Source: a virus (taxonomy: Duplodnaviria > Heunggongvirae > Uroviricota > Caudoviricetes). Taken from it: 64,000 nucleotides of DNA. Both the position numbers and the translations under genes were made by a program. The stretch spans positions 14,318 through 78,317 of IMG/VR virus record IMGVR_UViG_3300011339_000564; one strand, given 5' to 3'. The notes under the pieces are model-generated. The model had not been told where the DNA came from. It saw nothing but the letters and a program-made list of their open reading frames with translations, and searched no databases. Below are positions 481 through 57,455 of this stretch, one piece after another; the stretch's first letter is position 1, and each line of letters opens with the position of its first letter.

Positions 481-849
481 ATGCATATTTTGTCAACTCA
501 ATTAAAATTCACCAAAGAACAAATACTTGAATTTGGTAAAATAACCGGAGACTCGGGGCCTATACATAGCATTGATTTAATAGTACAAGGCGGATTAATT
601 ATAAGTTGTTTACCAAAAATTCTAAATGATATTATGACTAGAGATAATATTGATGAAGGTTATACTCATAGTGTTAGTATGATTTTAGAAGCAAAATTTA
701 GAAACAAATTGCCAGCCGATACATTAGTTACTGTTGATTTTATCCGCGAAGATACTACCAAATTAATTTCCAGATTTAGTTGGCGTGTATATAGTGTAGA
801 TACTGAATATTGTTTTGGTAAATGGGTAATTTACAAAGCTAAACGTTGA
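481..849 (+). CDS. MaoC-like hot-dog fold dehydratase/thioesterase domain protein
   Basis: FGKITGDSGPIHS...IVQGGLI matches the MaoC dehydratase pattern (F..sGD.nPiH....ivhG). 122 aa. Confidence 0.5.
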   Translation: MHILSTQLKFTKEQILEFGKITGDSGPIHSIDLIVQGGLIISCLPKILNDIMTRDNIDEGYTHSVSMILEAKFRNKLPADTLVTVDFIREDTTKLISRFSWRVYSVDTEYCFGKWVIYKAKR

Positions 850-857
850 CTTGATTA

Positions 858-1661
858 ATGGATCATTATGTAACTTTAGGGGTAAACAAAAATGCTACCC
901 CGGACGATATTAAAAAAGCATATCGCAAACTGGCAAGTAAACATCATCCCGATAAAGGGGGCGATACCGCAACGTTTCAACAAATTGAAGAAGCATATCG
1001 TATTCTCAGTGATCCACAACAACGTCAACAATATGACAATCCAATGCCACAAGGCTTTGGGCAGAATTTTAATTTTAACGGTGGACCTGATATCTTCCAA
1101 GACTTTATGAGTCAGGTGTTTAGGCAACAACATCAGCAACATCAACACCGCCAGAGACAAAAACCAGTATTTAGAACCACAGTAACTGTAACACTTGAAC
1201 AGTCATACAAAGGTGAAGAGCAAGTTATCAGACTACAAACACCTACACTTACACATGCGGCAAATATTCAAACTCCGAAAGGGGTTCATAATGGTGACCA
1301 AGTTAAATTTGATAATATCATACAAGAGGCAAGTCTTATTGTAGAGTTTAAAATTATACCACATTTAAAATATGATAGAAATGGAAATGACTTGTTATCA
1401 AATCACCCGATATCAATATTAGATTTAATTACAGGGACATCGTTTGAGTTTACTACTATTTCAGGTAAAACATTTGAAGTTACAGTTAAACCTAAAACGC
1501 AACCATTTATACAATTAAAAATTACAGGACAAGGTATGCCCATACATGGAACCAATCAGTTTGGCGACCAAATAATCTTGTTAAAACCCTATATACCTGA
1601 TATAATTGACGAATCAATTATTAACAGCATTCTACAATCTAAAAATAAGGAATCAATATGA
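858..1661 (+). CDS. J-domain co-chaperone (DnaJ/CbpA-like, no zinc finger)
   Basis: J-domain with HPD motif ([15 protein letters not shown]...QQRQQYD) and a DnaJ C-terminal beta-sandwich region. There is no Cys-rich zinc finger. Confidence 0.9.
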
Positions 1662-3919
1662 CAAATTCTCCGGAAATAGAAAACATTATCGAACAATCGA
1701 TTGAGTATGCCAAACAACGTAAACATCAATATGTTACAGTTGAACACTTACTTCTTGCATTAATTAATCATCCATCTTTTACTAAATGCGTAGTTGGCTT
1801 TGGCATAGATGTTGAGTCAATGTCACACGAAATCACTGGTTATTTAGATAGCTTACACGCTATTGTTTATACTGAAACTGAAGTAGTTCCACGCAAAACA
1901 AGTAGTTTAGAACGGGTTATGAATCGTTCTGTCACTCAGGTTCTATTCACCGGACGTAGACAAGTTACTACTATTGATTTGTATCTAAGTATTGCAAGTG
2001 AAGGTAACAGTCACGCACATTATTTCATGCTCAAATACGGTATGCAAAAGAATGAGTTTGTTGCGTACTGGCAAAAACACTATAAGAATGAAGGCGCCGG
2101 CAATCTTACTGAAAATCAAGCAGATGAAATTCTTGAAGAATATACTATTAACCTAAGTGAACTTGCTAGTCAAGGTAAACTTGAACCATTGATTGGTCGT
2201 GCAAAAGAACTTGATGATATTATCAATGTGCTTGCTAAACGATTTAAATCAAATGTATTGATGGTGGGTGATCCGGGTGTAGGTAAAACTGCTATTGCCG
2301 AAGGTCTTGCACAAATGATGCACGACAAACAAGTGCCTGAATTTTTAGAAGGTCATCAACTATATTCATTAGAAGTTGGTTCATTACTTGCCGGCAGCAA
2401 ATATCGCGGGGACTTTGAAGAAAAAGTCAAAGCCATTATCGATGCATTGAATACTAAAAAGAAAGCTATTTTATTCATTGACGAAGCACATACTATGCAA
2501 GGTGCAGGTTCAAGCTCCAATGGTAGTGTTGACTTTGCTAATATGATTAAACCAGCAATTACTAAAGGCACATTGAAAGTTATTGCTAGTACTACTTGGG
2601 AAGAATACTACGAAAGTTTTGAGAAGGATCGTGCATTAATGCGTAGATTCTATCGTGTCTCAATTGATGAACCAAGCAACGAATCTACTGTTCGAATTCT
2701 TTCTGGACTAAGCACACGATTGAATGACTTTCATAGTGTTGAAATTCAAGAAGATGCAATTAAAGCATCAGTTGAAATGTCAACACGATACATTCACGAC
2801 CGAAAAAATCCTGATAAAAGTATTGACTTATTGGATGCGGCTTGTGCTAAACAACGTGTTGCAGGTAATAAAGGTGCACATATTACTAAAGACTTAGTGT
2901 TTGACCAAGTAGAGAAGTTTACGGGAGTTCCTGCAGATAAGATGAAGGGTGATAATTTTGACCTTATCAATAACCTTGAGATTAATATCAAAGGTAAATT
3001 ATATGGTCAAGATGAAACCGTTCAGCAAGTGTTAGAACGTATCTATGTTAACTTTGCTGGTATCGGTAATGATACTAAACCAACAGGTAGTTTCTTGTTT
3101 TTAGGCCCAACAGGTACAGGTAAAACAGAATTGGCTAAGTTGTTAAGTAAGAACCTTGACATGCCATTGCTCAAATATGATATGAGTGAATACGGAGAAA
3201 AACATTCAGTATCTAGTTTGATCGGTCCGCCCCCTGGTTATGTTGGCTTCGGTGACAGTCAAGTCGGTGGTGGCCGTTTAATCAACGACTTAAGTAAGAA
3301 CCCACATGCTATCATGTTGTTTGATGAAGTTGAAAAAGCACACCCTGATATATTTAACATCTTCTTACAGATGTTAGACGAAGGTACTATTACAGGAAGT
3401 AATGGTAAGAAGGTTAACTGTAAGAATGCTATTATCATTATGACTAGTAACTTAGGTAGTGCCGATGGTGAGCGCAATAACATTGGTTTTGGATCACAAG
3501 ACAAGCAAGGAGAAGATGATAAAGCATTGAAAGAATTCTTTAAGCCAGAATTCAGAAATCGTGTTGATTTGATTTGCAAGTTTAACAAACTTGATAGCTT
3601 GGCTATTAAGAAAATTGTTATTAAGTTTACTGAAGATTTGAAAAAATCATTAATTGAAAAACACAATATCAATTTAGTATTGACAGAACCAGTAGTTGAG
3701 TATCTAGCTGAACAAGGGTATGACAAGAAAATGGGTGCTAGACCACTAGCACGTAAGATTGACGAATTGATTCGTGTACCACTGAGTAAAAAAGTATTGT
3801 TTGAACGCATTAAAAATGCTACTATTACTGCCAACATTGTTGGTGACACTATTGATTTTGCAGTGACACACAAATTAACAGCTAAGGTGAATGACGATGG
3901 CATTATTGAGGTCAGTTGA
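1658..3919 (+). CDS. clpA: ClpA-like AAA+ unfoldase
   Basis: Clp N-domain and two AAA+ modules (Walker A GDPGVGKT and GPTGTGKT). 753 aa with no ClpB middle domain. [11 protein letters not shown] aligns with the ClpA IGL ClpP-docking loop. ATGA overlap with the upstream J-domain gene. Confidence 0.85.
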
Positions 3920-4631
3920 AAATATACCCGGTGTTAATTTTTATGAACATCGGGATCAGCTTTATTATAACAAATATGAATATAGAGCTAGATTTTATCT
4001 AGTGGGAGTTCGGTATACATGGTATATCAAAGATAATATTCAGGAACTAGTTGACAAATTAAATGGCCCTGCAATAGGCTACAGCTACAGTTACATAAAT
4101 GGAGAAACCAATAGAGATGAGATTAAAGAAAATATTCCTAAATTAAAGAAATTTTTACACTGGCGTAACGAAATTAAAAAGAAGAAAAATTCTACTATAA
4201 GAGTTGAGCATAATACTGTTGCGGTGTTCAGTAATGATTTACAAGAATTACACGACATTACAAATATTATTCCTGATATTGAAATAGATATCACACAAGC
4301 ACAAACATCTAATTTTGTTGGGGTTAGGTATTTTGTGCGTAAACCAAAACATAGTTATAGAGTTTATTTAAAATCTAGGCGTATTGAGGGTTCATTTGCT
4401 AAGGATTTACATGAATTGTTTAAAAAGAACAAAAAGTTGTATCCATGCAATTCGCTTAAACATTGGGCTAAGGGTAGTGCAAGCAATACTAATATGTGGA
4501 GGTATCGTTTTAGTAGTGCTACTCACTTTATTGACTATGATGATGAGAGCACCTTAAGCTATCTAGCAATATTGCACGGAGATATGCTTGGAAAACGCTA
4601 TAAATTAGAAAAACGTCCTGATCCTATCTAA
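3891..4631 (+). CDS. Hypothetical protein
   Basis: 246-aa ORF in the same-strand operon, overlapping the clpA-like 3' end. No motif recognised. Confidence 0.55.
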   Translation: MTMALLRSVENIPGVNFYEHRDQLYYNKYEYRARFYLVGVRYTWYIKDNIQELVDKLNGPAIGYSYSYINGETNRDEIKENIPKLKKFLHWRNEIKKKKNSTIRVEHNTVAVFSNDLQELHDITNIIPDIEIDITQAQTSNFVGVRYFVRKPKHSYRVYLKSRRIEGSFAKDLHELFKKNKKLYPCNSLKHWAKGSASNTNMWRYRFSSATHFIDYDDESTLSYLAILHGDMLGKRYKLEKRPDPI

Positions 4632-4633
4632 AA

Positions 4634-4642
4634 TGATAAATA
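4634..4642 (+). promoter_or_regulatory. TGATAAATA motif (candidate T4-late-type promoter element)
   Basis: Exact 9-mer in the intergenic region 25 nt upstream of the ATG at 4667. T4 late promoters have the consensus TATAAATA. Confidence 0.3.
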
Positions 4643-4666
4643 CTCTAATAAAATGGAGTATTTACC

Positions 4667-4831
4667 ATGGCAAAGATTGTCGAAGATGTATTAGTCATCA
4701 AATTCAGTAAAATCGTTAAGGACAGCGAAGAAGGTTCTCCTATCGCTGGTTCTGATGTTCAAGCCGCATTAGAGCAAGTAGCACAGGAACTAGTTGGTTC
4801 GGGTGTTGTTGTTGAGGTTGTTCAAGCATGA
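4667..4831 (+). CDS. Small hypothetical protein (54 aa, below the track cutoff)
   Basis: ATG at 4667 preceded by GGAG. Translation MAKIVEDVLVIKFSKIV...VVEVVQA. The stop overlaps the ATG at 4828 (ATGA). Confidence 0.45.
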   Translation: MAKIVEDVLVIKFSKIVKDSEEGSPIAGSDVQAALEQVAQELVGSGVVVEVVQA

Positions 4832-5202
4832 GCCAAACTACAACATTAATACTGTTGCCGCAAACTACATACCAGAATCCAGGTAACGGAGCACCTTACA
4901 CAGTTGTAGGGAACGCTCAACCAGCCGCTGCCTACTATCTAGGTAACAGAGACTTGCAAACAGTTAATCTTAGTTTAACTAACATGACAGGTAATATTGT
5001 AATTCAAGCTACACTATCAAATCCAGCAACACTTGATAGTCAATGGTTTGATGTATATGAATTAGATGCAAATGCTAATTCATCCGGCGATAACTCAAAC
5101 GCACAAACATATACAAATATAACAGGTAACTTTGTTTATATGAGAGCAAAGATTGTAGACTTCCAAGCTGGAGGCGTTAATTTTGTTAAGCTAAGTTATT
5201 AA
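4828..5202 (+). CDS. Hypothetical protein (possible virion protein)
   Basis: 124-aa ORF, translationally coupled. Rich in Asn/Thr/Gln with a beta-rich appearance. Confidence 0.55.
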   Translation: MSQTTTLILLPQTTYQNPGNGAPYTVVGNAQPAAAYYLGNRDLQTVNLSLTNMTGNIVIQATLSNPATLDSQWFDVYELDANANSSGDNSNAQTYTNITGNFVYMRAKIVDFQAGGVNFVKLSY

Positions 5203-5203
5203 T

Positions 5204-6487
5204 ATGAAACAAATTGTCATTATGCCGGGAGGCTTTCATCCATTTCATGCAGGGCACGCCGCACTATATCAAAGTGCAGTGAAAGCATTTCCGAGTGCAG
5301 AAGTATATGTTGCCGCTACCAATGACACAAAAACAAGACCTTTCCCCTTTAATATCAAAGAAAAACTAGCAAAACTTGCTGGCGTAGCTCCTGGACATTT
5401 TGTACAAGTTAAAAGTCCTTTTAAAGCAGAAGAAATCACAAGTCAATATAATCCAGAAGAAGATGTATTAATTTTTGTGCGTAGTGAAAAAGATAGAACA
5501 GAACAACCTAAACCAGGTGGCACAAAGAAAGATGGTACACCTGCTTACTTTCAACCATGGACCGGTAAGAATTTACAGCCATTCAGTAAACATGCTTACA
5601 TTGCTTACTTACCAACTGTAGAGTTTGGACCTGGAATTCAGAGTGCGACTGAGATTCGCAACATGTGGCCTAAACTAAACGATAAGCGCAAGACTGCATT
5701 GGTTATGAGTTTATATCCGATAACACAGACAAATCCTAAACTTGCCGCTAACGTTGTTAAGATGTTAGATATAGGCATGGGTGAACGACAAGGTGTGGCG
5801 GAGGATAAAGAATCCGATCCAGTCACAAGTGCTGTATTAAATTTCTATAAGCCAGTAATAAATGATATCCACAAAGAAAAACTACCAGACTATGTTGACC
5901 AAGCTCGTGGATTGTTACAGAAAACAAATGATCCTGATATTCGTAGTAAATTAGTTGATATCTTTAAAAAGGGTAAAGAAAATCCATATATTCAAGGTGG
6001 CATTGTTACTACCGTTGGTGCAGTATTAGCCGGTGGTATATTAACTACAGCACAGAAGATGGGACTAAGCCCTGCACAAACTAACTTAGCATTACAAGCA
6101 ATATTGAATACAGTTATTCCTACAGTTGTTTCACGTATCAATGGTAAAAACTGGAGTGATACAATTAAGTATACATTAGCAAGTGCAGGTATAGGTACAG
6201 GTATTGCCGGCGCAAGTTTAGTAGAAAACGATCCTTGGGGAGATCAAGGTAACTTTGCAGGTGATCGACACGTTGATATTGGTGGAATTTTTACTAGACC
6301 TAAATTAGGTGTAGGTGATATGGTTAAAGTAAATGCAGGTCATTTCAAAGGCATCGGAGAGATATCAGAAATTAAAGGTGACCGTGCAGAAGTTTGGATG
6401 GACAGCTATGCTAAATCCTTCATGTTTGATTTATCTGACCTAGTAAAGTATATACCCGAATCCATAGATTACTTAGAAGAAAAATAA
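5204..6487 (+). CDS. HxGH nucleotidyltransferase domain fused to a Gly/Ala-rich hydrophobic region and a KOW-like C-terminus
   Basis: N-terminal MPGGFHPFHAGH (cytidylyl/adenylyltransferase HxGH signature), a central QGVAED motif, hydrophobic G/A-rich segments, and C-terminal VGDMVKVNAGHFKGIGEISEIKGDRAEV. Confidence 0.6.
   Translation: MKQIVIMPGGFHPFHAGHAALYQSAVKAFPSAEVYVAATNDTKTRPFPFNIKEKLAKLAGVAPGHFVQVKSPFKAEEITSQYNPEEDVLIFVRSEKDRTEQPKPGGTKKDGTPAYFQPWTGKNLQPFSKHAYIAYLPTVEFGPGIQSATEIRNMWPKLNDKRKTALVMSLYPITQTNPKLAANVVKMLDIGMGERQGVAEDKESDPVTSAVLNFYKPVINDIHKEKLPDYVDQARGLLQKTNDPDIRSKLVDIFKKGKENPYIQGGIVTTVGAVLAGGILTTAQKMGLSPAQTNLALQAILNTVIPTVVSRINGKNWSDTIKYTLASAGIGTGIAGASLVENDPWGDQGNFAGDRHVDIGGIFTRPKLGVGDMVKVNAGHFKGIGEISEIKGDRAEVWMDSYAKSFMFDLSDLVKYIPESIDYLEEK
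5789..5805 (+). repeat. Copy of the dispersed GC-rich motif CAAGGTGTGGCGGA(G/A)G (encodes QGVAE)
   Basis: CAAGGTGTGGCGGAGGA; one of six copies in the window. Confidence 0.8.
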
Positions 6488-6538
6488 TTTGACCCCCTCG
6501 ATAGAGTGTAAATATCTTTATCTTAACAAGAGGACCAA

Positions 6539-7435
6539 ATGGCAACTAAGAAAACCAAAAAAACTGAAGAAAAAACTGTACCCGTAGAAAAGGTACAGGA
6601 AATCGCTGAACAAGCGGCACAAGAACAGCAACAAGCCCCGCAACAGGGTCAAGTTCAAGTTAATGTTGACTTTCTAAAAACTACCCGTGTGCACATTGCT
6701 ATGCCATGTTACGGTGGTATGTTGACAGAATCAACATTTATGTCATTCATCAAGTGGGCTAACACAGCCCGTCAACTTGGTATTGACTGGACATTAGAAA
6801 CAATGGTTAACGAATCATTGATTAGCCGAGCACGTAATACACTAACTGCAAAGTTCTTGGACATGCCAGACGCTACTCACTTGTTCTTTGTTGACGCTGA
6901 CATTGGCTGGGAACCCTGGCATCTATTAGTTCTATTGAACCGTGATGTTGATGTTATTGGTGGACTATATCCAATGAAGACTATGCCTATTAAATGGGTA
7001 GTTAATGGTTTTGAAGGTGCAGAAGAAGGCACTGATGGCCTACAGGAAGTATCTAAAGCAGGTACCGGTTTCTTACTAATGAAGAAGCATGTATTTGACA
7101 AATTGAAGTCTCATCCTGCAGTTAAGCAGTATAAGAACGACATTGGTTTAGATCCAAGATTTGACCAACACTTAAAGACTTACTTTGATACAGCAGTTCG
7201 TCAGAATCGTTACTACAGTGAAGACTGGACATTCTGTGAAAACTGGCGTGATATAGGTGGTAAGATTTGGGTTGACAAGCGTGTACTATTACGTCACAGC
7301 GGCTCATATGTTTTCTGCCAAGAGAACCAAGAACACTTGATGAAGACTATTGGACCCATGTACGTAGACCAATTGACTCAACAAGGTATTAAGCTAGTTG
7401 ACAAAGACGGCAACGAAGCTAAAATCAACAAATAA
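6539..7435 (+). CDS. GT-A fold (GT2-like) glycosyltransferase, putative
   Basis: IAMPCYGG..., SRARN, a FFVDADIGW DxD-like motif, and YSEDWTFCENW...HSG. Confidence 0.5.
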   Translation: MATKKTKKTEEKTVPVEKVQEIAEQAAQEQQQAPQQGQVQVNVDFLKTTRVHIAMPCYGGMLTESTFMSFIKWANTARQLGIDWTLETMVNESLISRARNTLTAKFLDMPDATHLFFVDADIGWEPWHLLVLLNRDVDVIGGLYPMKTMPIKWVVNGFEGAEEGTDGLQEVSKAGTGFLLMKKHVFDKLKSHPAVKQYKNDIGLDPRFDQHLKTYFDTAVRQNRYYSEDWTFCENWRDIGGKIWVDKRVLLRHSGSYVFCQENQEHLMKTIGPMYVDQLTQQGIKLVDKDGNEAKINK

Positions 7436-7438
7436 AAC

Positions 7439-7466
7439 AAAGCCCCGAAAGGGGCTTTTGTTTGAT
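7439..7466 (+). terminator. Rho-independent terminator
   Basis: AAAGCCCC-GAAA-GGGGCTTT hairpin followed by TTTTGTTT, 4 nt after the stop at 7433-7435. Confidence 0.8.
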
Positions 7467-7471
7467 AAATA
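7463..7471 (+). promoter_or_regulatory. TGATAAATA motif (candidate late promoter element)
   Basis: Exact 9-mer just upstream of the ATG at 7476. Confidence 0.3.
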
Positions 7472-7475
7472 CACT

Positions 7476-8792
7476 ATGAATTTAAAAGAACTTGATTCCT
7501 TTCGCATCTCTGACGCTATTAGTTTCCATGACAAATTGAACCCTAAGTTATGGAATAATACACGGTTGCGTCCTGAAGTAAAACAACAACTATTAATAAT
7601 AGCAGAAGATTTTTTAGAAGAATTAGGTATTAGTGGATTAGATGTAATAGACATGACTGTATCTGGTTCTAATGCCGCATTTAGTTATACACCCAACAGC
7701 GACCTAGACTTACACATATTAGTTGATATGAGTAAGTTGCCAAATGATGAAGTTTACAGAGAATTATTTACAGCAAAAAAATCATTATACAATGACAGCC
7801 ACGACATAAAAATACACGGGATACCAGTAGAGTTATATGTACAAGACGCCAGAGAACCAGTCGTAAGTCTAGGTGAGTACAGTCTCACAAATGATAACTG
7901 GCTTAAAATCCCATCAAAACGCAGAGCCAATTTTGACCAAACCGCCACCAAGACGAAATATGAAAAGTTATTAACATTAATAGAGCTAGCCCTCAAATCT
8001 AGAAAATACAGTAAAGTAAGTAACATAGCTAAAACAATTAAAAGATATAGACAATCAGGATTAGATAAGGGTGGCGAGTTTGGTCCTGAAAATCTAGCAT
8101 ACAAAGCATTAAGAGCACAGGGTTACATTACTAAGTTATACGATTTGCGTGACAAGTTACATAGTGAGAAGTTAACTATTGAAACGATGTACCAGCCCAT
8201 AAACGATGACTATGATCCAAATGGTCCTCCTCCAGGTCCCGAGTTTAAACCAACTATGCCTAAAGGTACTGTTAAAGTAGACGTAAGTGATGTATATGAT
8301 TGGTATAAGTTAGGACAACATATTAGTAATCTTAAGGGTCTAGGTAAGCACGACTTTGGTAGTGGACCTCCTAGTACTATTTTTTCATTTGGTGATGAAG
8401 ATACAGAACACCAGTACATTAAAGATTTAGAGAAGACCGGATTAACGACAACTGATATTGATCCAGTTGATCCCAAGCAACCCAAGGGTATGAAGCGTCA
8501 GAAAGTTGATCCTACATATAACGTCAATGAATACAACACTATGCAATTTGCGGCTGAAAAAACACCAGCAACAAACCCATATGGTGGTCTTAAAGATAAT
8601 CAATTTCGAGGAAGTATGTCAGAAGCAAGTGGATATATACCTTCAGAAAAACAAAAAAATGATCCTCGTTTTAGTACAGCATTGACAGTGGATGTTCATC
8701 CTGATTCAATCAAAAAGAACGCAAAAGCATTTGGATGGCTCACTAGCAGAGCCGGAATCCCTCCTACAGCGAAAGCAAACGGCAAAATCTGA
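7476..8792 (+). CDS. Pol-beta superfamily nucleotidyltransferase domain protein with a CTS-like N-terminus and a disordered C-terminal half
   Basis: The start was moved from 7398 to the ATG at 7476 because the longer ORF runs through the terminator. VSGSNAAFSYTPNSDLDLHILVD matches the GS...DxD NTase signature. N-terminus is MNLKELDSF. Confidence 0.55.
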   Translation: MNLKELDSFRISDAISFHDKLNPKLWNNTRLRPEVKQQLLIIAEDFLEELGISGLDVIDMTVSGSNAAFSYTPNSDLDLHILVDMSKLPNDEVYRELFTAKKSLYNDSHDIKIHGIPVELYVQDAREPVVSLGEYSLTNDNWLKIPSKRRANFDQTATKTKYEKLLTLIELALKSRKYSKVSNIAKTIKRYRQSGLDKGGEFGPENLAYKALRAQGYITKLYDLRDKLHSEKLTIETMYQPINDDYDPNGPPPGPEFKPTMPKGTVKVDVSDVYDWYKLGQHISNLKGLGKHDFGSGPPSTIFSFGDEDTEHQYIKDLEKTGLTTTDIDPVDPKQPKGMKRQKVDPTYNVNEYNTMQFAAEKTPATNPYGGLKDNQFRGSMSEASGYIPSEKQKNDPRFSTALTVDVHPDSIKKNAKAFGWLTSRAGIPPTAKANGKI

Positions 8793-8841
8793 TGGTAAAA
8801 AATTCTCTTTTGACTAAATATAAGTATCAAGGGAATTTTCT

Positions 8842-9087
8842 ATGCCAATTGCGAATAGCTATAATAATACACCAAACGTAGTTTTAGGTCCTCCAACTAG
8901 TTCTCCACCTACAGTTGATCCGGGCGCGGCTACAGGAACTAACCCAATAGTTAGAAGACCAACTCCTACAATATCATCTAATACTGAAGTAGCAAGTAAT
9001 GCTATTCCTGAAGCAGTTCCTACTCCGACTGTTAATCTTCCCACCGCAACTAACACAACAATATTGAAGTTGTGGAAAACAGCATAA
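8842..9087 (+). CDS. Hypothetical Pro/Thr-rich protein
   Basis: 81-aa ORF on the + strand with AAGGGA upstream. An antisense ORF (8859-9233) shares the same wobble positions, so the strand is not certain. Confidence 0.35.
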   Translation: MPIANSYNNTPNVVLGPPTSSPPTVDPGAATGTNPIVRRPTPTISSNTEVASNAIPEAVPTPTVNLPTATNTTILKLWKTA

Positions 9088-9130
9088 TAAACTAACAAGT
9101 TTGGTGGAATTCCTTGTCTATATAGATTTT

Positions 9131-9139
9131 TGATAAATA
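9131..9139 (+). promoter_or_regulatory. TGATAAATA motif (candidate late promoter element)
   Basis: Exact 9-mer 23 nt upstream of the ATG at 9163, flanked by two GGAATTCC palindromes (9105-9112 and 9152-9159). Confidence 0.3.
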
Positions 9140-9162
9140 CTATATAATATTGGAATTCCATC

Positions 9163-9942
9163 ATGCGTTTTACAGAAATATCAGAATCTACAACATCAGG
9201 CTCAGTATCTACTGTAGCAATGCCACTAGGCAAAACTCAAACACGTACTCAAGTATCTGGTTTAGAACCCGTGAAAAAAGTAATGGGCGGCACTGCTAAG
9301 AAAAAAGGTCCATATGGAAATAGTCTTACTGAAGGTGCTATGAAGCAACTTTCAATGGATCTTAAAGAGTTAAAAGACGAAGAATTCAAAAAGAAATATA
9401 ATATGACTAAGCAGGAAGCCCGTACTGAATTATCTGCAAAGCCTGAACCCATCAAAGAAGCAGAACTATCTGAAGATGATATCATATTAGTTCCAGGACA
9501 GGGACGCAAAATGAAAACTGGATTTGTACCGCATGGTCAAAGTCGTGTAGACCATGAAGTAGAAATGGCACGTAGTGATTTATTCAGTGCGGCAAAGAAC
9601 GCTAAACAAGTATATGAAATGATTCATAGTGTATCTGAAGATGAGGGTCTTGAGGGCTGGGTACAAGAAAAGATTATCAAAGCCAACGACTACCTAAATA
9701 CAGTACGTGAATACTTAGAAGGTAAACAAATTCAACAAGAAGCTAGTAGTCTTACATATGAAGGTAAGATTGACTTTGCCAAAAAGATACAAAAGAATGT
9801 AGATAAGAGTAACAAAGCAGTAGTAAAGACTAGAAAAGAAGTTGGTGCAAGAATTGCTGATATTGGTGCAGGCGGCAAAGAACACAATGTTAAAACTGAC
9901 AAAGCGTGGGACGATGCACAAAAAGCAAAGAAAGCAAAATAA
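9163..9942 (+). CDS. Hypothetical protein with a CTS-like N-terminus (candidate capsid-internal protein)
   Basis: N-terminus MRFTEISES. Charged and low in complexity. 259 aa. Confidence 0.55.
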   Translation: MRFTEISESTTSGSVSTVAMPLGKTQTRTQVSGLEPVKKVMGGTAKKKGPYGNSLTEGAMKQLSMDLKELKDEEFKKKYNMTKQEARTELSAKPEPIKEAELSEDDIILVPGQGRKMKTGFVPHGQSRVDHEVEMARSDLFSAAKNAKQVYEMIHSVSEDEGLEGWVQEKIIKANDYLNTVREYLEGKQIQQEASSLTYEGKIDFAKKIQKNVDKSNKAVVKTRKEVGARIADIGAGGKEHNVKTDKAWDDAQKAKKAK

Positions 9943-13804: not shown

Positions 13805-14245
13805 ATGTTATCAGATAATCTAAAAGTACTTTTAGCTAGTACACAAAGTTTTGCTATTAAAACACAAAACTTTCATTGGAATGTTGAGGGGAGTAATTTT
13901 CCACAGTATCATGCATTTTTTGATACGTTATACGGTGATGTAAGTGCTACTATCGATCCTATCGCTGAATATATCAGAATATTAGGTGCTTACACACCCG
14001 GCAGTTTACAACGTTATGCTGAACTAAGTATCATTCAAGACCAAATCAAAATCCCACGTGCTCAACTAATGTTTGCTGAATCACTACAAGATTGTGAAAA
14101 AATGAGTGAATTAGTCGTTGCTATGTTTGACGAAGCAACAAACGAACGTCAGCAAGGCATTGCTAATTACATGGCTGAACTACAAGACCTATACGGTAAG
14201 AAAGCATGGTTCATTCGTTCTACATTGAAAACAGAACGTGAGTAA
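13805..14245 (+). CDS. dps: Dps-family ferritin-like DNA-protection protein
   Basis: KTQNFHWNVEGSNFPQYHAFFDTLY...IDPIAEYIRILG matches the Dps signature (fHWnv.G..F...H..f...y...D.iAEri..lG). Confidence 0.8.
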   Translation: MLSDNLKVLLASTQSFAIKTQNFHWNVEGSNFPQYHAFFDTLYGDVSATIDPIAEYIRILGAYTPGSLQRYAELSIIQDQIKIPRAQLMFAESLQDCEKMSELVVAMFDEATNERQQGIANYMAELQDLYGKKAWFIRSTLKTERE

Positions 14246-15515
14246 ATTAGAATTTACCCAGAAAGAATGGGAAAAGATAGAAAATAACGGGACTTATTGT
14301 CCCGGTTTATTTAACAGCAAATACATAGAAACTGACGGTGGACTGAGAGCATGTTGTGTTCAAGATTTAAAAGGTGAACATTATACAAATACAGAATCCT
14401 ATAACACCACTTCGTTAAAACAAGCCAGACAAAATTCATTATCAGGGATTAAAGATTCCAGTTGCGCTAGATGTTGGGAAAATGAATCATTAAACACCAG
14501 ATCATATAGACAAGGTCTAGTAGAGTCTGCTATTCACTGGAAAAGTAAAATCAAAGATAATATAAATGTTGACTATTCCATCACAGAACCCACCATAGAC
14601 TACTTAGACATTAGATTTGATAATATCTGTAATTTAAGATGTAGATATTGCAGTACTATTTTTAGTTCTAGTTGGAGACACGAAACTGAGTTACTAGAAA
14701 AAGAATTACCAATATTTAAATATATAAAAAGAAGATCAGTAGATACAAAAATATTGAATAGTGTAACCGATATTGACACGATATTAGCTGACCTTAGAAC
14801 AGTTAAAAAAATATTTTTTGCGGGTGGCGAGCCATTAGTAAACGATAAACATTATGAAGTGTTAGAATATCTAATAGATAATAATAGAACCAACATTGAA
14901 ATAACGTATAATACTAATTTTACAAACATTAAAAAAGTTATTCCTTATTGGAAAAAGTTTTCAAACATACACGTGGGTGCAAGTTTAGATGCAAATTATA
15001 AAAGAGGAGAATACATTCGTAAAAATCTCGTATGGGACCAGATTGTAGAAAATAGAAAATTAATGATTGCCGAAGTTCCTCATGTTCAATTTGAAATAAA
15101 TGCGTCAATGAGTATATTGAATGCGTATAATGTAGTAGATTTTCATAAAGAATGGATTAATGATAAATTAATTGGACCTTTTGATTTAACTGCATGGAAT
15201 TTTGTATCTAAACCTGAACATTATGATATTAGGAATTTACCTGACCATCATAAGATTAAATTAAAAGAAATATATCAAACTCATATTGATTGGTTAAACT
15301 CCCTCACATCAGGCAATGATATTAAGTTTAAAAGTAAAAATGATTCTAGTTTTGCTATTCAATCATATCAAGGTATAATTAATAGGTTAAATTTAAGTAG
15401 AAATTCATCTTTTGACAAATTTTGGGAATTTGACAAATGGTTAGATAATAATAGAGATGAAAACTTTTTTGATGTGTTTCCTGAGTATGAGGACTTTGCT
15501 AGATATTTTAGCTAA
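14238..15515 (+). CDS. Radical SAM enzyme with an N-terminal Cys-rich (SPASM/twitch-like) segment
   Basis: CNLRCRYC is a CxxxCxxC motif. An N-terminal YCPGLFNSKYIETDGGLRACC...SCARCW resembles a SPASM-type auxiliary cluster motif. GTG start overlapping the dps stop. Confidence 0.7.
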   Translation: MSKLEFTQKEWEKIENNGTYCPGLFNSKYIETDGGLRACCVQDLKGEHYTNTESYNTTSLKQARQNSLSGIKDSSCARCWENESLNTRSYRQGLVESAIHWKSKIKDNINVDYSITEPTIDYLDIRFDNICNLRCRYCSTIFSSSWRHETELLEKELPIFKYIKRRSVDTKILNSVTDIDTILADLRTVKKIFFAGGEPLVNDKHYEVLEYLIDNNRTNIEITYNTNFTNIKKVIPYWKKFSNIHVGASLDANYKRGEYIRKNLVWDQIVENRKLMIAEVPHVQFEINASMSILNAYNVVDFHKEWINDKLIGPFDLTAWNFVSKPEHYDIRNLPDHHKIKLKEIYQTHIDWLNSLTSGNDIKFKSKNDSSFAIQSYQGIINRLNLSRNSSFDKFWEFDKWLDNNRDENFFDVFPEYEDFARYFS

Positions 15516-16707: not shown

Positions 16708-16787
16708 AGTAATTTTTTCTATATTTTGTAAATTTTTATGCCAAATGGAATAAATATATGTTCATCATATTTATTATCGGAGGACAG

Positions 16788-17747
16788 ATGAGAAAACTTT
16801 TAGTATTATTAGCATTTATACCGTTAGTTGCTTTTGCTTGGCAACCAACAAAACCTGTAACAGTTATATTCCCAAATGGCCCGGGAGCAGGAAATGAAAT
16901 ATCATTTCGTATTGTAGCAGAGATTGTAGAAAAACAAACTGGTGCAAAATTTGTACCTGAATATAGGCCGGGAGCTGATGGCAATATAGCTATCAATCAC
17001 TTTGTAACAGTTCCTACTGATGGGCACACTATCAGTGTTCCGGCATGTCAGTCAAATTGGGTCACCCCTGAAGTGTGGTATCCAAAGGTAATCAAGTATA
17101 ACCCAATGGATTTAGAACCCATTGCTAATATTGCACGTAGTCCATTAGCATTCTGGGCGCATCCTAGCAGTAAGATTAATACTCCCGAAGAACTAGTAGC
17201 CGCTATTCGCAAAAAAGAGCGCCCTATTACAATAGCAATAGGTGGCGGCGGTCATAAGTTAGCAGTTGAATATCTTGCTGCCAAACTAAATGTACCGGGC
17301 GGTGATCGAATAGAAACAGCTATGTATAAAGGTCCAGCACAAGCGTTATTAGATGTAATGGGAGGTCACGTTGAATTTGGAGTGACCCCGGTTGCTGTTG
17401 GATACCCTCACGTACAAACAGGAAAACTAAAGTTAATTGGTATTGCTGATACTAGACCATTGCCTGGATTAGAAACAGCACCATTGATGAATAAGGCAGC
17501 ACCTGGATTAAGCATACATGGTTGCTGGAATATAGTTCTACCTCCCAATACCCCGCAGGATATACAAAAATGGTATGCTGAACACTTTGTTCCTGCAATA
17601 CGTAGCGCGGAAGCAGGCGCTAAATTCAAAGAAAACATGATGTACATTACACCCGAAGAACATAGCCCAGCAGGTGTTCGTGCTAGTATGTCGAGACTAC
17701 AGCAAGTTTGGCAACCGATTGCTAGAAGAATAGATCCTAATAAATGA
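16788..17747 (+). CDS. Bug/TctC-family periplasmic solute-binding protein
   Basis: Start set at the ATG at 16788 behind GGAGGA. Signal peptide MRKLLVLLAFIPLVAFA. PTKPVTVIFPNGPGAGNEISFRIVAE...YRPGADGNIA...PTDGHTI matches the tripartite tricarboxylate receptor family pattern. Confidence 0.75.
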   Translation: MRKLLVLLAFIPLVAFAWQPTKPVTVIFPNGPGAGNEISFRIVAEIVEKQTGAKFVPEYRPGADGNIAINHFVTVPTDGHTISVPACQSNWVTPEVWYPKVIKYNPMDLEPIANIARSPLAFWAHPSSKINTPEELVAAIRKKERPITIAIGGGGHKLAVEYLAAKLNVPGGDRIETAMYKGPAQALLDVMGGHVEFGVTPVAVGYPHVQTGKLKLIGIADTRPLPGLETAPLMNKAAPGLSIHGCWNIVLPPNTPQDIQKWYAEHFVPAIRSAEAGAKFKENMMYITPEEHSPAGVRASMSRLQQVWQPIARRIDPNK

Positions 17748-48440: not shown

Positions 48441-48859
48441 AATGGTTCTATGTTATTAAAACAAGTCACAATGACACACTAGGATTTGGAATTACTATTC
48501 ATTTGTCTAAACGATTAGTTGATGGTTATTGTAATCCTAGTGCGGCAAAACAACAATTTTCAAAATTGTATTATGGAGAAAATCTCCATATCAATCAATT
48601 AGAAAAATATATCAAACAGGTATATAGTAATAAACGATTAAACTTTACTAACACACGTACCCGTAAATTAGAATGGATAGATCCAAAATATGACATTTCA
48701 ATTGAGGATTTGATTGATACTGTTGAGGATCGTATTTTGGGCTACCCATTACCTATCAAACGTATCAGGGATAAATTCTTACCATACACCCTTGATAATC
48801 CGGATATCTTTAAAACAATCAATGAGAATCCTGATTTGTTTTTGGAACAACTCGGTTGA
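48437..48859 (+). CDS. Hypothetical protein (weak GIY-YIG-like N-terminus)
   Basis: WFYVIKTSHNDTLGFGITIHLSKRL is loosely similar to GIY...YIGxT...R. Not decisive. Confidence 0.3.
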   Translation: MKWFYVIKTSHNDTLGFGITIHLSKRLVDGYCNPSAAKQQFSKLYYGENLHINQLEKYIKQVYSNKRLNFTNTRTRKLEWIDPKYDISIEDLIDTVEDRILGYPLPIKRIRDKFLPYTLDNPDIFKTINENPDLFLEQLG

Positions 48860-48884
48860 CAACATCTAAATAGTAGTATATAAT
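48856..48884 (+). promoter_or_regulatory. sigma70-type promoter TTGACA-17-TATAAT; leaderless transcript predicted
   Basis: The -35 at 48856-48861 contains the upstream stop TGA (48857-48859). The -10 is at 48879-48884 and the ATG at 48891 follows 6 nt later. Confidence 0.6.
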
Positions 48885-48890
48885 AGACAC

Positions 48891-49889
48891 ATGAAATACG
48901 CACTCATTGACACAGCAAATACATTCTTCCGTGCCCGTCACATTGCATCACGTAATAGTGATACATGGGAAAAGATCGGCATGGCCCTACACTTGACATT
49001 GGCAAGTACTAATCAAATTGTTCGCAAGTTTGGTGTGGATCACGTTGTGTTTTGTTTAGAGGGTCGTAGCTGGCGCAAAAGTTTCTACGAGCCATACAAG
49101 AAAAATCGCATTGTTGATACACTATCACAAACAGAAGCCGAGATTGAAGAAAATAAAATGTTCTGGGAGACGTATGAAGTATTTACAAATTTTTTACGTG
49201 AGAAAACTAATGTTAGTGTCCTTCGTCATGCTGAGGCTGAGGCTGATGACTTAATTGCACGTTTCATTCACTTGCATCCCGATGATGAACATTTTATTAT
49301 CAGTAGCGATAGCGACTATGTGCAATTGATTACCGAAAATGTAAAACAATATAATGGGGTAGCTAATCAACTGATTACGTTAGATGGTTACTTTGATGAC
49401 AAGGGTAAGATTGTCAAAGATAAGAAAACTAAAGAACCCAAGCTACTAGAAGATCCACAATATTTGCTATTTAAAAAATGTATGCGGGGTGATGGTACTG
49501 ACAATGTGTTTAGTGCTTATCCTGGTGTGCGTGAGAAAGGTAGCAAGAATAAAGTTGGCTTGATGGAAGCATATGCTGATAGAGAAAAACAGGGCTACCA
49601 GTGGAACAATCTACTACTTCAACGCTGGCTAGACCATAATGGAGTAGAACATCGTGTACGTGAGGATTATGAACGTAATCGTATACTAATTGATTTGACT
49701 GCACAACCTCAGGATATCAAAGACAAGGTTGATGCTAGTATCATTGAGGGTGTTCGTACAACTACTACCCCTCAAGTTGGTATTCACTTTATGCGATTCT
49801 GTGGCAAATATGAGTTGACTAAGATTAGTGAACAAGCAGAAACATATGCGAAATGGTTGAATAGTCCTTACATGGGAAGTTTAGTATGA
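48891..49889 (+). CDS. 5'-3' exonuclease / flap endonuclease (T4 RNase H-like)
   Basis: LIDTANTFFRARH, AEAEADDLIA, ISSDSDYVQL, and an H3TH-like GDGTDNV. Confidence 0.8.
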   Translation: MKYALIDTANTFFRARHIASRNSDTWEKIGMALHLTLASTNQIVRKFGVDHVVFCLEGRSWRKSFYEPYKKNRIVDTLSQTEAEIEENKMFWETYEVFTNFLREKTNVSVLRHAEAEADDLIARFIHLHPDDEHFIISSDSDYVQLITENVKQYNGVANQLITLDGYFDDKGKIVKDKKTKEPKLLEDPQYLLFKKCMRGDGTDNVFSAYPGVREKGSKNKVGLMEAYADREKQGYQWNNLLLQRWLDHNGVEHRVREDYERNRILIDLTAQPQDIKDKVDASIIEGVRTTTTPQVGIHFMRFCGKYELTKISEQAETYAKWLNSPYMGSLV

Positions 49890-55498: not shown

Positions 55499-56122
55499 AT
55501 GAAATATCATATTTTAGGAAGACCGGGCGGAAGCAGACCACTAGTATCAACTATTTTTAATATGATGGGATACAATTCGTATTACGGCTCTTTAGATAAA
55601 CCCAATGACAATGATACAGCAATATTAATAACATATCAATACGATATGTTCGCATGGGTAATGACCTCTAGATACGTTGAAGATATATTATACAATTATA
55701 ATTTAGGTAATAAAGAAAACTTTAATCATTGGCTTACTCACTATGTGGGTCCAGGCACACCGTCAACCCCAGATGATATCAGCATGAGTGATTGGGCGGC
55801 GCACGTAGTGAACAGTTATAAACACATAGGAATGTTTGCTCCTTTAAACGGTATCTATGAAGATTTAGAATTATATTGTAAAGATTCAAAATGTATGCGA
55901 CACGAATTGCCGTTAGAATTAATTGTAGATAGTCCAAATCAGGCTATAATTAGGATAGAAGAAATTACAGAAAAAGTTATGGATCAACAAATTAAGAATT
56001 TTTTCTTAAAAGAAGTTGAGAAACAAAAAATATTACTTTCTCCATGGATGGATGATTACTATAAAGCAAAAGAAAAATCCACAGACAGTTATCTGTGGCT
56101 TAAAAAGCAATCCTCAATTTGA
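55499..56122 (+). CDS. Hypothetical protein
   Basis: Start moved to the ATG at 55499 (MKYHILGRPGGS...), downstream of the hairpin. Confidence 0.5.
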   Translation: MKYHILGRPGGSRPLVSTIFNMMGYNSYYGSLDKPNDNDTAILITYQYDMFAWVMTSRYVEDILYNYNLGNKENFNHWLTHYVGPGTPSTPDDISMSDWAAHVVNSYKHIGMFAPLNGIYEDLELYCKDSKCMRHELPLELIVDSPNQAIIRIEEITEKVMDQQIKNFFLKEVEKQKILLSPWMDDYYKAKEKSTDSYLWLKKQSSI

Positions 56123-56147
56123 CATAAATTCCAAATAGTGTTACAAT
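56119..56147 (+). promoter_or_regulatory. sigma70-type promoter TTGACA-17-TGtTACAAT; leaderless transcript predicted
   Basis: The -35 at 56119-56124 contains the upstream stop TGA (56120-56122). The -10 is at 56142-56147 and the ATG at 56154 follows 6 nt later. Confidence 0.55.
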
Positions 56148-56153
56148 AAGGGT

Positions 56154-57455
56154 ATGAAAAAATTTATACTCATACTATCTATTGTTCTATCCGGTTGTGG
56201 GGGCGGTGGTGGCACCAGTACTGGCGATAGTTCGCAGGCAGTATCAGTAAAATCAACGTGTACCCTTGCTGTAAATTCAAATACAGTTCCACAATCATAT
56301 TATGGCACTAATTCAATACCCACACCATTATCAAAATTTGATAATACTATTCTAAGAGGTATTGGTCTTAAAGATTATCATCCTAGATTTAATCTGGCAA
56401 ATACAAATTGCACTCAAGATGAACATTCCAGATTACTATATCAAAAAACACTAGACAGATTAAAACTATTAAACGTAGATTATGTTGAAGTATATCAATA
56501 TGGCCCGGTAGTTGATTTTAATGCTACTACTTGGGTAGTAGATAAATCTACATGGCAAATACCAGAAAGTGAATTGATCTGGTTTATTAAAGAGGCTAAT
56601 AGTAGAAACATTAAAGTAAATATTATTTGGCAATTATGGCCAACTGATAGTAAAGGTAATACTATAAATTCAAGTTATGATATGTCAGAAGCGGAAATGT
56701 TAAAAGTATTGCGGGGATGGCATAATATTATTGTAGATTTAGCTAAGTTTGGTGGTAGTAATGGTTTGAATATATTAACCGTACATTGGAATGCATTTCA
56801 TTTTCCAGTAACTAACAAATATAAAGAATCTGCCACCTTAGAATTTTTATCAATCATTAATGATGTGCGACAACATTTTAATGGTAAATTATTTATGGGA
56901 GCATCGCCTGTATTTTTTGATAAGAGAATTGTTGAAAAGGTCGATGGTATTATTATTCCATTAACTCCTAGTAATTGGTCTAGAAATGATGATATTAATA
57001 TATCTGTCAGTTTGTTAAAAAGCCGATATTTAGATAATATATTAGGAAAAGCATTAGAACTTTCTATGGCTACTGGATTAGATTTAAAAAGTATTCCGGT
57101 TATCTGGGATTTTAATATTCAGAGCAGAGATAAAGCATTGAGTGAAGGTTGGGTAGAAGATGGATTTTGTATTAAAGAAGGTGGCGATGGTGCCCCTGTA
57201 AGTTGGGGTAATCCTGAATGTGCCAAACAAATGAATTATATAACCGATTTTAGTATTCAAGCATTAGCTATTGAAGGTGCATTTCAGGCTATTAAAGAAC
57301 AAACATTAATTAAAACATATGGTATTAACTTTAGTACTAGTTATTGGCATACTGATACGTTAGTACCCGGGCAAGAAGGCTTTCCCAACTTGTCGCAATC
57401 TATTCGAGGAAAACCTGCTGAGAATGTAGTCAAACATTGGTTCTCCAAAAATTGA
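56154..57455 (+). CDS. Lipoprotein, possible TIM-barrel glycoside hydrolase-like
   Basis: Lipobox LSGC followed by a GGGGG linker. 433 aa. The enzymatic assignment is not supported by a clear motif. Confidence 0.6.
   Translation: MKKFILILSIVLSGCGGGGGTSTGDSSQAVSVKSTCTLAVNSNTVPQSYYGTNSIPTPLSKFDNTILRGIGLKDYHPRFNLANTNCTQDEHSRLLYQKTLDRLKLLNVDYVEVYQYGPVVDFNATTWVVDKSTWQIPESELIWFIKEANSRNIKVNIIWQLWPTDSKGNTINSSYDMSEAEMLKVLRGWHNIIVDLAKFGGSNGLNILTVHWNAFHFPVTNKYKESATLEFLSIINDVRQHFNGKLFMGASPVFFDKRIVEKVDGIIIPLTPSNWSRNDDINISVSLLKSRYLDNILGKALELSMATGLDLKSIPVIWDFNIQSRDKALSEGWVEDGFCIKEGGDGAPVSWGNPECAKQMNYITDFSIQALAIEGAFQAIKEQTLIKTYGINFSTSYWHTDTLVPGQEGFPNLSQSIRGKPAENVVKHWFSKN

Follow-up and report, generated by a model that had tools for sequence, protein, structure and literature searches.

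Does a ClpA-type unfoldase encoded by a freshwater jumbo phage work with the ClpP protease of its host or with one of the phage's own, and what is the role of the J-domain co-chaperone encoded directly in front of it? These questions are raised by a locus at positions 481 to 3919 of a 64,000-nucleotide stretch (positions 14,318 to 78,317) of IMG/VR virus record IMGVR_UViG_3300011339_000564 (Caudoviricetes); the whole stretch is hereafter called the window. Three genes lie there on the plus strand, with the coordinates that a first-pass annotation, made from the sequence alone, had given them. They encode a hot-dog protein (open reading frame 1 [ORF1]; 481 to 849), a J-protein (858 to 1661), and ClpA (1658 to 3919), and the ATGA stop/start overlap between the last two (1658 to 1661) is real. 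That annotation regarded the three genes as a single leaderless early operon and proposed that the phage plugs its ClpA into the host ClpP. We favor a different reading, which we regard as reasonably probable: the locus would be a leaderless unit transcribed by the host RNA polymerase, its core would be the J-protein and ClpA, and the partner of ClpA would most likely be the phage's own ClpP.

The window was compared with two sets of relatives. The first is a clade represented in metagenomes, mostly from lakes, by hundreds of ClpA variants (73 to 99% identity) on contigs of up to 345 to 367 kb. The second consists of cultured jumbo phages, i.e., Agrobacterium phage Atu_ph07, Sinorhizobium phage Phosso, Pseudomonas phage PA5oct, and RaK2.

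The phage ClpA and its J-protein

The 753-amino-acid (aa) product of clpA is a double-ring AAA+ unfoldase of the ClpA type, with an N-domain (PF02861 at residues 16 to 55; 38 bits) followed by the D1 and D2 rings. Residues 5 to 726 of Escherichia coli ClpA align to it in one continuous stretch (E = 3e-179), whereas the alignments with ClpB, ClpC, and Hsp104 are each split in two; the phage protein thus has no M-domain. Both Walker A/B pairs are intact (Walker A, GDPGVGKT at positions 2267 to 2290 in D1 and GPTGTGKT at positions 3104 to 3127 in D2; D1 Walker B, ILFIDEAH). The pore loops (KYRG in D1 and GYVGF in D2), the arginine fingers (RRF and FRNR), and the sensor-2 motif (GARPLAR) are also present, and the ClpA motifs are kept in 103 loci. 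From residue 605 on, the phage segment aligns without gaps to E. coli residues 613-ERKSIGLIHQDN. This alignment places the tripeptide IGF (residues 609 to 611; positions 3482 to 3490) at the IGL tripeptide (residues 617 to 619) of the loop with which E. coli ClpA docks onto ClpP. IGF is kept in every clade variant seen and in Phosso, Atu_ph07, and PA5oct, and RaK2 has IGV at this site. The description of the gene as a full-length clpA with a ClpP-docking loop was therefore correct, and the phage ClpA is predicted to dock onto ClpP through IGF.

The likeness to E. coli ClpA (PDB 1ksf and 6w1z) extends to the N-domain/D1/D2 organization, the catalytic and pore-loop motifs, the position of the docking tripeptide, and the lack of an M-domain. 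The phage protein differs in having IGF in place of IGL, in a four-residue insertion, in the linkage of its gene to dnaJ rather than to clpS, and in scores that fall short of the curated equivalog cut-offs (TIGR02639, 783.8 versus 993 bits; NF008263, 671 versus 1350 bits). The family phrog_4871 matches it over the full length (782 bits). The inserted residues (SQVG) lie behind the D2 pore loop GYVGF (residues ~530 to 540; positions ~3245 to 3275), and GYVGFGDS is the commonest form of the surrounding sequence in the clade (72 of ~100 loci).

Matches to ClpA were found in 205 of the 50,697 records of the phage collection. The earlier statement that ClpA is uncommon in phages thus holds overall, but ClpA is a known hallmark of the Rak2-like jumbo phages (PMC6102473) and forms a PHROG family of its own. 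Some records in the collection are bacterial DNA filed as phage, i.e., "Acinetobacter phage MD-2021a," which has the bacterial gene order tig-clpP-clpX, and several unannotated "Listeria," "Escherichia," and "Bacteriophage sp." records (CAKLQH020000005.1 and CAKLQF020000005.1 are bacterial-DNA records of this kind). Such records inflate the counts of phage ClpA and ClpP, and those matching either protein were left out of the comparison.

The gene in front of clpA starts 8 nucleotides (nt) after the ORF1 stop codon and encodes a 267-aa J-protein. Its J-domain (PF00226 at residues 2 to 60; 82 bits) carries the HPD motif at residues 30 to 32 (positions 945 to 953), and its DnaJ_C domain (PF01556) occupies residues 106 to 247 and covers profile positions 2 to 152 of 152. 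The linker contains only a short G/F-like stretch, which is followed by a Q/H-rich stretch. Since the protein has no cysteine, it lacks a zinc finger and belongs to class B, and the CbpA-like J-protein recognized in the first-pass annotation was thus correctly identified. It shares with E. coli CbpA and other class B members the J-domain with HPD, C-terminal domains I and II, the absence of a zinc finger, and possibly, in its short G/F-like stretch, the linker, and the CbpA model aligns along its full length (residues 2 to 254 against model positions 5 to 283 of 306). It differs from CbpA in being shorter and phage encoded, in lacking a cbpM partner, and in scoring far below the NCBIfam equivalog cut-off (77 versus 403 bits); the NCBIfam DnaJ model also matched below its cut-off. 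No DnaK homologue was found in the window or in the related loci that were fetched, so the J-protein would be expected to stimulate the DnaK of the host.

The pairing of the two genes is not peculiar to the window. A J-protein gene lies directly before clpA in every related locus examined (~100), and the same order, i.e., J-protein and then ClpA, is found in Atu_ph07 (gp293/gp292), PA5oct (gp297/gp298), and Phosso. The ClpA proteins of these three phages are 39 to 40% identical to that of the window, and the J-proteins of the cultured phages are only 25 to 27% identical to its J-protein. The first-pass annotation had seen coupling of the two genes in their ATGA overlap. The adjacency is real throughout, but the overlap is a lineage-specific feature, confined to the closest lineages; in the other clade members, the genes are separated by 10 to 15 nt. 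A PhoH gene is located upstream on the opposite strand in PA5oct, as in the clade. Phosso, unlike the window, has a peptide deformylase gene between dnaJ and clpA (locus L004, 5454 to 5972), i.e., another function acting on newly made proteins in the same module. In RaK2, clpA has no adjacent J-protein gene. The gene orders indicate that the conserved core is dnaJ-clpA and not the three-gene unit.

Candidate partners of the phage ClpA

Searches of the window with the ClpP and ClpS sequences of E. coli and Atu_ph07 (tblastn) found neither protein, in agreement with the first-pass annotation, which had suggested that the phage may use host ClpP. This suggestion was not borne out, since relatives of the phage carry ClpP, ClpS, and ClpX of their own. 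A phage-encoded ClpP was among the outcomes that the first-pass annotation itself had listed as speaking against its proposal, although here it comes from relatives and not from the incomplete genome of the window. At least nine IMG/VR contigs encode both a ClpA orthologue (77 to 86% identical to that of the window) and a true ClpP, and the clade ClpP scores 302 bits against the NF001368 cut-off of 249. Two contigs, of 303 and 38 kb, have clpA and clpP ~32 kb apart; at such a distance, clpP would fall upstream of the left end of the window. The 303-kb contig carries the genes for an IbpA-like small heat-shock protein, ClpS, and, further along, ClpP in this order (all three NCBIfam verified), and a scaffold of 345,284 bp, whose ClpA is 86% identical, encodes ClpX, ribosomal protein S21, Hsp20, ClpS, and ClpP. 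Such Clp clusters lie at 3982 to 9578 of locus L269 (ERZ19525894 scaffold_1; 345 kb) and at 486 to 4588 of locus L261. Among the cultured relatives, Atu_ph07 has a true ClpP (gp676; NF001368, 314 versus 249 bits) and a ClpS (gp708), and Phosso and PA5oct each encode a true ClpP. The published Atu_ph07 genome contains ClpX, ClpP, ClpS, ClpA, ClpB, DnaJ, and Hsp20, and ClpA is conserved in Rak2-like phages (PMC6102473).

The absence of clpP and clpS from the window would be explained by its not reaching the corresponding part of the genome, and we infer that the genome from which it derives has a clpP. A self-contained phage ClpAPS is more likely, judging from these gene contents, than the use of the host ClpP, which the phage probably does not need. 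In one IMG/VR record (IMGVR_UViG_3300027749_002876; 524,565 bp; loci L068, L071, L200, and L204), clpA and clpP both occur twice, the copies differing slightly in sequence; the record probably joins two related phages in a chimeric or concatenated assembly.

Under the reading that we favor, the host RNA polymerase would start at the consensus sigma-70 promoter, at position ~480 to 481, and ribosomes would translate the leaderless hot-dog cistron and then those of the J-protein, of ClpA, and of the ORFs further downstream. A promoter of the same kind would drive a leaderless dnaJ-clpA in the ancestral gene order, which still prevails. The J-protein would bind nonnative clients and feed them to the host DnaK, and ClpA, as a hexameric two-ring unfoldase, would dock through IGF onto the phage ClpP, with the phage ClpS as its N-degron adaptor. 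Together with the phage ClpX and the IbpA-like small heat-shock protein, ClpA, ClpP, and ClpS would form a self-contained Clp/chaperone toolkit. It might help a large phage proteome to fold and keep it under quality control, contribute to virion assembly, or degrade selected host proteins.

Several points weigh against this reading. The ClpA scores below the NCBIfam equivalog cut-offs point to a divergent, phage-type ClpA. The location of clpA among virion genes in RaK2 and PA5oct fits a role in assembly as well as a proteolytic one. Moreover, the source contig (JGI Ga0153702_1008) is 77 kb long and begins ~300 nt ahead of the window, which covers 64 kb of it, and clpP, clpS, and clpX come from the relatives only.

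The reading proposed in the first-pass annotation, in which the phage ClpA docks onto the host ClpP and redirects proteolysis (e.g., toward defense or regulatory proteins) while the J-protein recruits the host DnaK, now appears unlikely. It agrees with the intact and conserved IGF loop and with the absence of clpP and clpS both from the window and, in every clade locus, from the 10 kb on either side of clpA. In addition, the promoter of clpA is nearly perfect, whereas clpP of a relative has a normal leader behind a weaker promoter-like site (TGn plus 9 of 12 matches), so ClpA could meet the host ClpP first. However, with ClpP, ClpS, and ClpX encoded on the same contigs of the relatives and ClpP encoded in Atu_ph07, Phosso, and PA5oct, the host protease is probably not needed, and nothing points to particular host targets.

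Another reading, which we consider quite unlikely, dispenses with ClpP altogether: ClpA would act as an unfoldase or chaperone in virion morphogenesis or in the remodeling of phage proteins, together with the J-protein and the host DnaK. In a similar way, E. coli ClpA can activate the RepA protein of P1, as DnaK/DnaJ do. The gene neighborhoods are in line with such a role, since the neighbors of clpA are tail-sheath and virion genes in RaK2 and genes for virion-detected proteins in PA5oct, and since large, probably structural genes come after the unit in the clade. Translocase and assembly roles for the ClpA and ClpX of jumbo phages were also proposed by Iyer et al. (PMC7824862). On the other hand, IGF is retained clade-wide as well as in three distant phages with a ClpP of their own, which would be unexpected if docking were dispensable, and ClpS, an adaptor specific to ClpA, is kept as well. 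The phage's own ClpP accordingly stays our preferred candidate for the partner of ClpA.

Promoter layout and origin of the hot-dog gene

ORF1 is preceded by a sigma-70-type promoter on the plus strand (445 to 473), which had been noticed as a consensus promoter and does match TTGACA-17 nt-TATAAT at all 12 positions. Eight exact TTGACA-N17-TATAAT sites are present in the window, all on the plus strand (445, 24192, 47192, 48856, 55110, 57452, 57789, and 58112), compared with 0.06 in dinucleotide shuffles. The sites are thus not due to chance, and promoters of the sigma-70 consensus type are in use in this phage. In the ORF1 promoter, the -10 hexamer ends at position 473, i.e., 7 nt before the ATG that starts at 481, and no Shine-Dalgarno sequence lies between them. 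Given this spacing, transcription starting at the usual distance of 7±1 nt would leave a leader of 0 to 1 nt. The transcription start is thus predicted at ~480 to 481 and the ORF1 mRNA is predicted to be leaderless, and the leaderless layout described in the first-pass annotation holds as geometry. The opposite strand carries a promoter-like site (496 to 469; TTGACA-16-TATTAT; 11 of 12 matches) that overlaps both the promoter and the start of ORF1. It may merely reflect the AT richness and partial palindromy of the local sequence (ACAATT-TT-AATTGT at 448 to 461).

In related loci without ORF1, the same kind of promoter (TTGACA/T, 16 to 17 nt, TATAAT, the -10 often with a TGn extension) stands in front of dnaJ. 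Across ~90 related loci, whose J-proteins are 42 to 97% identical to that of the window, 54 distinct promoter sequences precede dnaJ, and their -10 elements end 5 to 7 nt before the ATG. A leaderless dnaJ behind a consensus promoter therefore appears to be a feature of the clade, described here for the first time. The cultured relatives (Atu_ph07, Phosso, and PA5oct) have leaders or no such promoter, so that the clade unit is set apart from theirs by its leaderless geometry. In several clade loci, the spacing between strong promoters and the gene starts that follow them is bimodal, i.e., either 6 to 7 nt or 30 to 39 nt, and genes of the latter class have a conserved leader (AGAGTCTTAATCAGTTAATTACAGGAG-like) that contains a Shine-Dalgarno sequence. 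Leaderless geometry is shared by two further genes of the window: that of a 5'-3' exonuclease (PF02739) starting at 48891 (promoter and gene, 48856 to 49889; plus strand) and a 433-aa ORF without a family match starting at 56154 (promoter and gene, 56119 to 57455). Ribosomal protein S21, encoded beside the Clp genes in relatives, may be relevant to how translation starts in a phage with leaderless mRNAs.

Leaderless mRNAs are known from phages and bacteria, an example being lambda cI transcribed from PRM. As in these mRNAs, the start codon of the clade unit would coincide with the transcription start behind a sigma-70 promoter. Unlike them, the layout is kept clade-wide for a chaperone-protease unit, and the promoter spacer contains an inverted repeat. 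Between the -35 and -10 elements, a perfect inverted repeat with arms of ≥6 bp is present in 27 of the 54 distinct dnaJ promoters, compared with 3.4% of spacer-shuffled controls. The arms covary (ATAGCAA/TTGCTAT, TAACACA/TGTGTTA, and TAACGCA/TGCGTTA), and the last two bases of the right arm are the TA of the -10 element (e.g., 3233 to 3261 of locus L012, 9158 to 9186 of L002, and 9171 to 9199 of L006). This dyad may represent an operator or a DNA hairpin. Its spacing and sequence do not fit known heat-shock operators (CIRCE, HAIR, and the CtsR box), as judged by a by-eye comparison.

PA5oct depends on the host RNA polymerase and has TTGAC/TATAATA promoters (PMC7318152). A temporal class for its gp297/gp298 is given neither in the main text of that report nor in the PhageExpressionAtlas preprint. 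The "early" timing assigned to the locus in the first-pass annotation is suggested by the promoter type and, by analogy, by the reliance of PA5oct on the host polymerase.

A more far-reaching idea, which strikes us as improbable, is that the J-protein is a dedicated partner of ClpA, either handing clients over from DnaK to ClpAP or acting as a direct adaptor, and that the leaderless unit is immediate-early and gated by the dyad in its promoter. If true, this would represent a phage-specific Hsp40-ClpA pathway without a cellular counterpart, because cellular clpA is paired with clpS, and dnaJ with dnaK. That the promoter match and leaderless start have no function, with the unit transcribed by read-through from the upstream gene and ORF1 translated by another route, is very improbable: no terminator-like site separates the upstream gene from ORF1, and an ORF1 homologue in a distant phage (L023) lies 21 nt after the preceding gene without a strong promoter, but the eight exact consensus sites (versus 0.06), all on the coding strand, the spacing kept before dnaJ in ~90 loci despite diverged spacers, and the lack of a Shine-Dalgarno sequence upstream of 481 all argue against it.

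The 122-aa ORF1 product had been called a MaoC-like hot-dog protein, an identity that is supported by structure modeling and not by Pfam. No family match at E ≤ 0.1 was obtained in Pfam (including MaoC_dehydratas), PHROGs, or NCBIfam, and a profile search of the PDB returned nothing significant, the only hit being a segment with the HTD2 motif (E = 0.54). Homologues in metagenomes number 41, each ~122 aa long. An AlphaFold2 model built from 31 homologues reached a mean pLDDT of 90.6, and its best Foldseek matches were human HTD2 (3ir3), Aeromonas caviae PhaJ (1iq6), HadAB/HadBD, and AF1124 (E = 3e-6 to 5e-5; TM ~0.7; probability 1.00). The hydratase-2 motif, which holds the catalytic Asp and His, is [YF]-x(1,2)-[LVIG]-[STGC]-G-D-x-N-P-[LIV]-H. 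The ORF1 family has F-x-x-[IVL]-T-G-D-x-G-P-[IV]-H (F-G-K-I-T-G-D-S-G-P-I-H in ORF1 itself), with D24 and H29 invariant among the 31 members and the Asn replaced by Gly in all 31. The model thus shares with PhaJ, HTD2, and HadB a single hot-dog fold and the Asp and His of the motif; ORF1 differs from them in the Asn-to-Gly replacement, in the absence of a Pfam MaoC match, and in belonging to a small, phage-restricted family. Only 12 representatives at 50% identity were found among 1.84 billion proteins, all of ~120 aa, and no annotated family was reached. We conclude that ORF1 is a predicted (R)-hydratase-like hot-dog protein with a putative enzyme role and putatively leaderless translation.

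The position of ORF1 in front of dnaJ is peculiar to the lineage of the window. Alignments with L012, which lacks the gene, and with the donor-like L023 delimit a cassette of ~470 bp (379 to 852; plus strand) in place of the ancestral dnaJ promoter. It comprises a 3' remnant of the donor's upstream gene (~415 to 436), its own promoter, ORF1, and the -35 element of the donor's next promoter. This last element, an orphan hexamer (TTGACT; 845 to 850) at the right junction, overlaps the ORF1 stop codon, and its spacer and -10 are missing in the window; in L023, the stop codon of the ORF1 homologue likewise lies inside the TTGACA of the next promoter. ORF1 adjoins dnaJ only in contigs in which it is 100% identical. 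Contigs with 96 to 99% identical ClpA have a holin-like gene and then dnaJ directly, with a spacer of 35 to 42 nt and no ORF1. None of 80 IMG/VR loci has ORF1 within 10 kb of clpA, and ~100 related loci in all are without it. The homologue in L023 (62% identical) is located ~8 kb downstream of a clpA and adjoins a UvdE gene. The comparisons thus indicate a recent cassette insertion in this lineage only, and the view of the three genes as one integral operon has to be given up.

The cassette pattern suggests shuffling between repeated early promoters. Promoter-flanked shuffling cassettes (PeSL) are known from T4-type phages, and the present case resembles them in that a small early gene, with copies of early promoters on both sides, has apparently moved as a cassette. 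As a result of the insertion, dnaJ of the window, still without a Shine-Dalgarno sequence, is now located 8 nt behind the ORF1 stop codon and is presumably translated by reinitiation after ORF1.

Surrounding genes, source phage, and significance

The unit extends past position 3919, as indicated by three further ORFs that are conserved clade-wide. A 246-aa ORF (3891 to 4631; plus strand) overlaps the 3' end of clpA by 29 nt and is found in 86 loci (28 to 100% identity); it is probably in the same transcript as clpA. It has no match in Pfam, PHROGs, or NCBIfam, and its single-sequence AlphaFold2 model (pLDDT 41) was unusable. Two small ORFs of 54 and 124 aa (4667 to 5202; plus strand), without Pfam matches, follow clpA in 90 to 91 loci. 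The unit likely ends with them, and a terminator-like site is located at 5160 to 5174. On the other side of the locus, the 3' part of a gene for a GTA_holin_3TM-like membrane protein (1 to 378; plus strand; PF11351, 31 bits, above the cut-off) reaches the window edge and continues beyond it; this gene closes the preceding unit and lies before dnaJ in all clade loci. Auxiliary-looking genes are also present in the window (13805 to 14245, 14238 to 15515, 16758 to 17747, and 5204 to 6487; ferritin-like, radical SAM enzyme, TctC/Bug-family solute receptor, and cytidylyltransferase-like).

On the basis of these comparisons, we assign the source phage to the T4-like Rak2/Atu_ph07/PA5oct supergroup of jumbo phages, as an uncultured member from freshwater. 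The best matches of the DNA polymerase of the window are those of Phosso (49%), Atu_ph07 (46%), and RaK2-like phages (44%), and ClpA, with 37 to 40% identity to the cultured jumbo phages, gives the same picture of kinship. When the phage collection was searched at the DNA level, no closely related cultured phage was found. Judging from its metagenomic contigs, the clade appears to be widespread and abundant in lakes. The moraphage lineage is also of freshwater origin, has ClpA, PhoH, and DnaJ, and has Bacteroidota as predicted hosts (PMC12619734); a comparison with that report for identity of the two groups revealed no common sample identifiers. The canonical TTGACA/TATAAT promoters of the clade fit poorly with Bacteroidota hosts. 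A clade-type ClpS (P0269; 88% identical to the clade ClpS) is labeled as derived from a "Candidatus Nanopelagicus sp." metagenome-assembled genome at NCBI (MFY8211672.1); either a phage contig was binned with that actinobacterium, or the label is a weak hint at the host.

Phage-encoded ClpA, ClpP, ClpS, and ClpX and the pairing of ClpA with DnaJ have already been annotated and discussed (PMC6102473, PMC7824862, PHROG 4871, and PMC12619734). Our search of the literature found no experimental study of phage ClpA, ClpP, ClpS, ClpX, DnaJ, or small heat-shock proteins. What is new here is modest, i.e., the leaderless promoter architecture of dnaJ-clpA, the covarying dyad, and the cassette origin of the hot-dog gene. 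The conserved unit, with its leaderless layout and consensus promoter, offers a simple handle on early expression that would be independent of Shine-Dalgarno sequences. The clade keeps the whole set of Clp, DnaJ, and small heat-shock proteins and, if this set is self-contained, it would show how very large phages secure capacity for protein folding and turnover.

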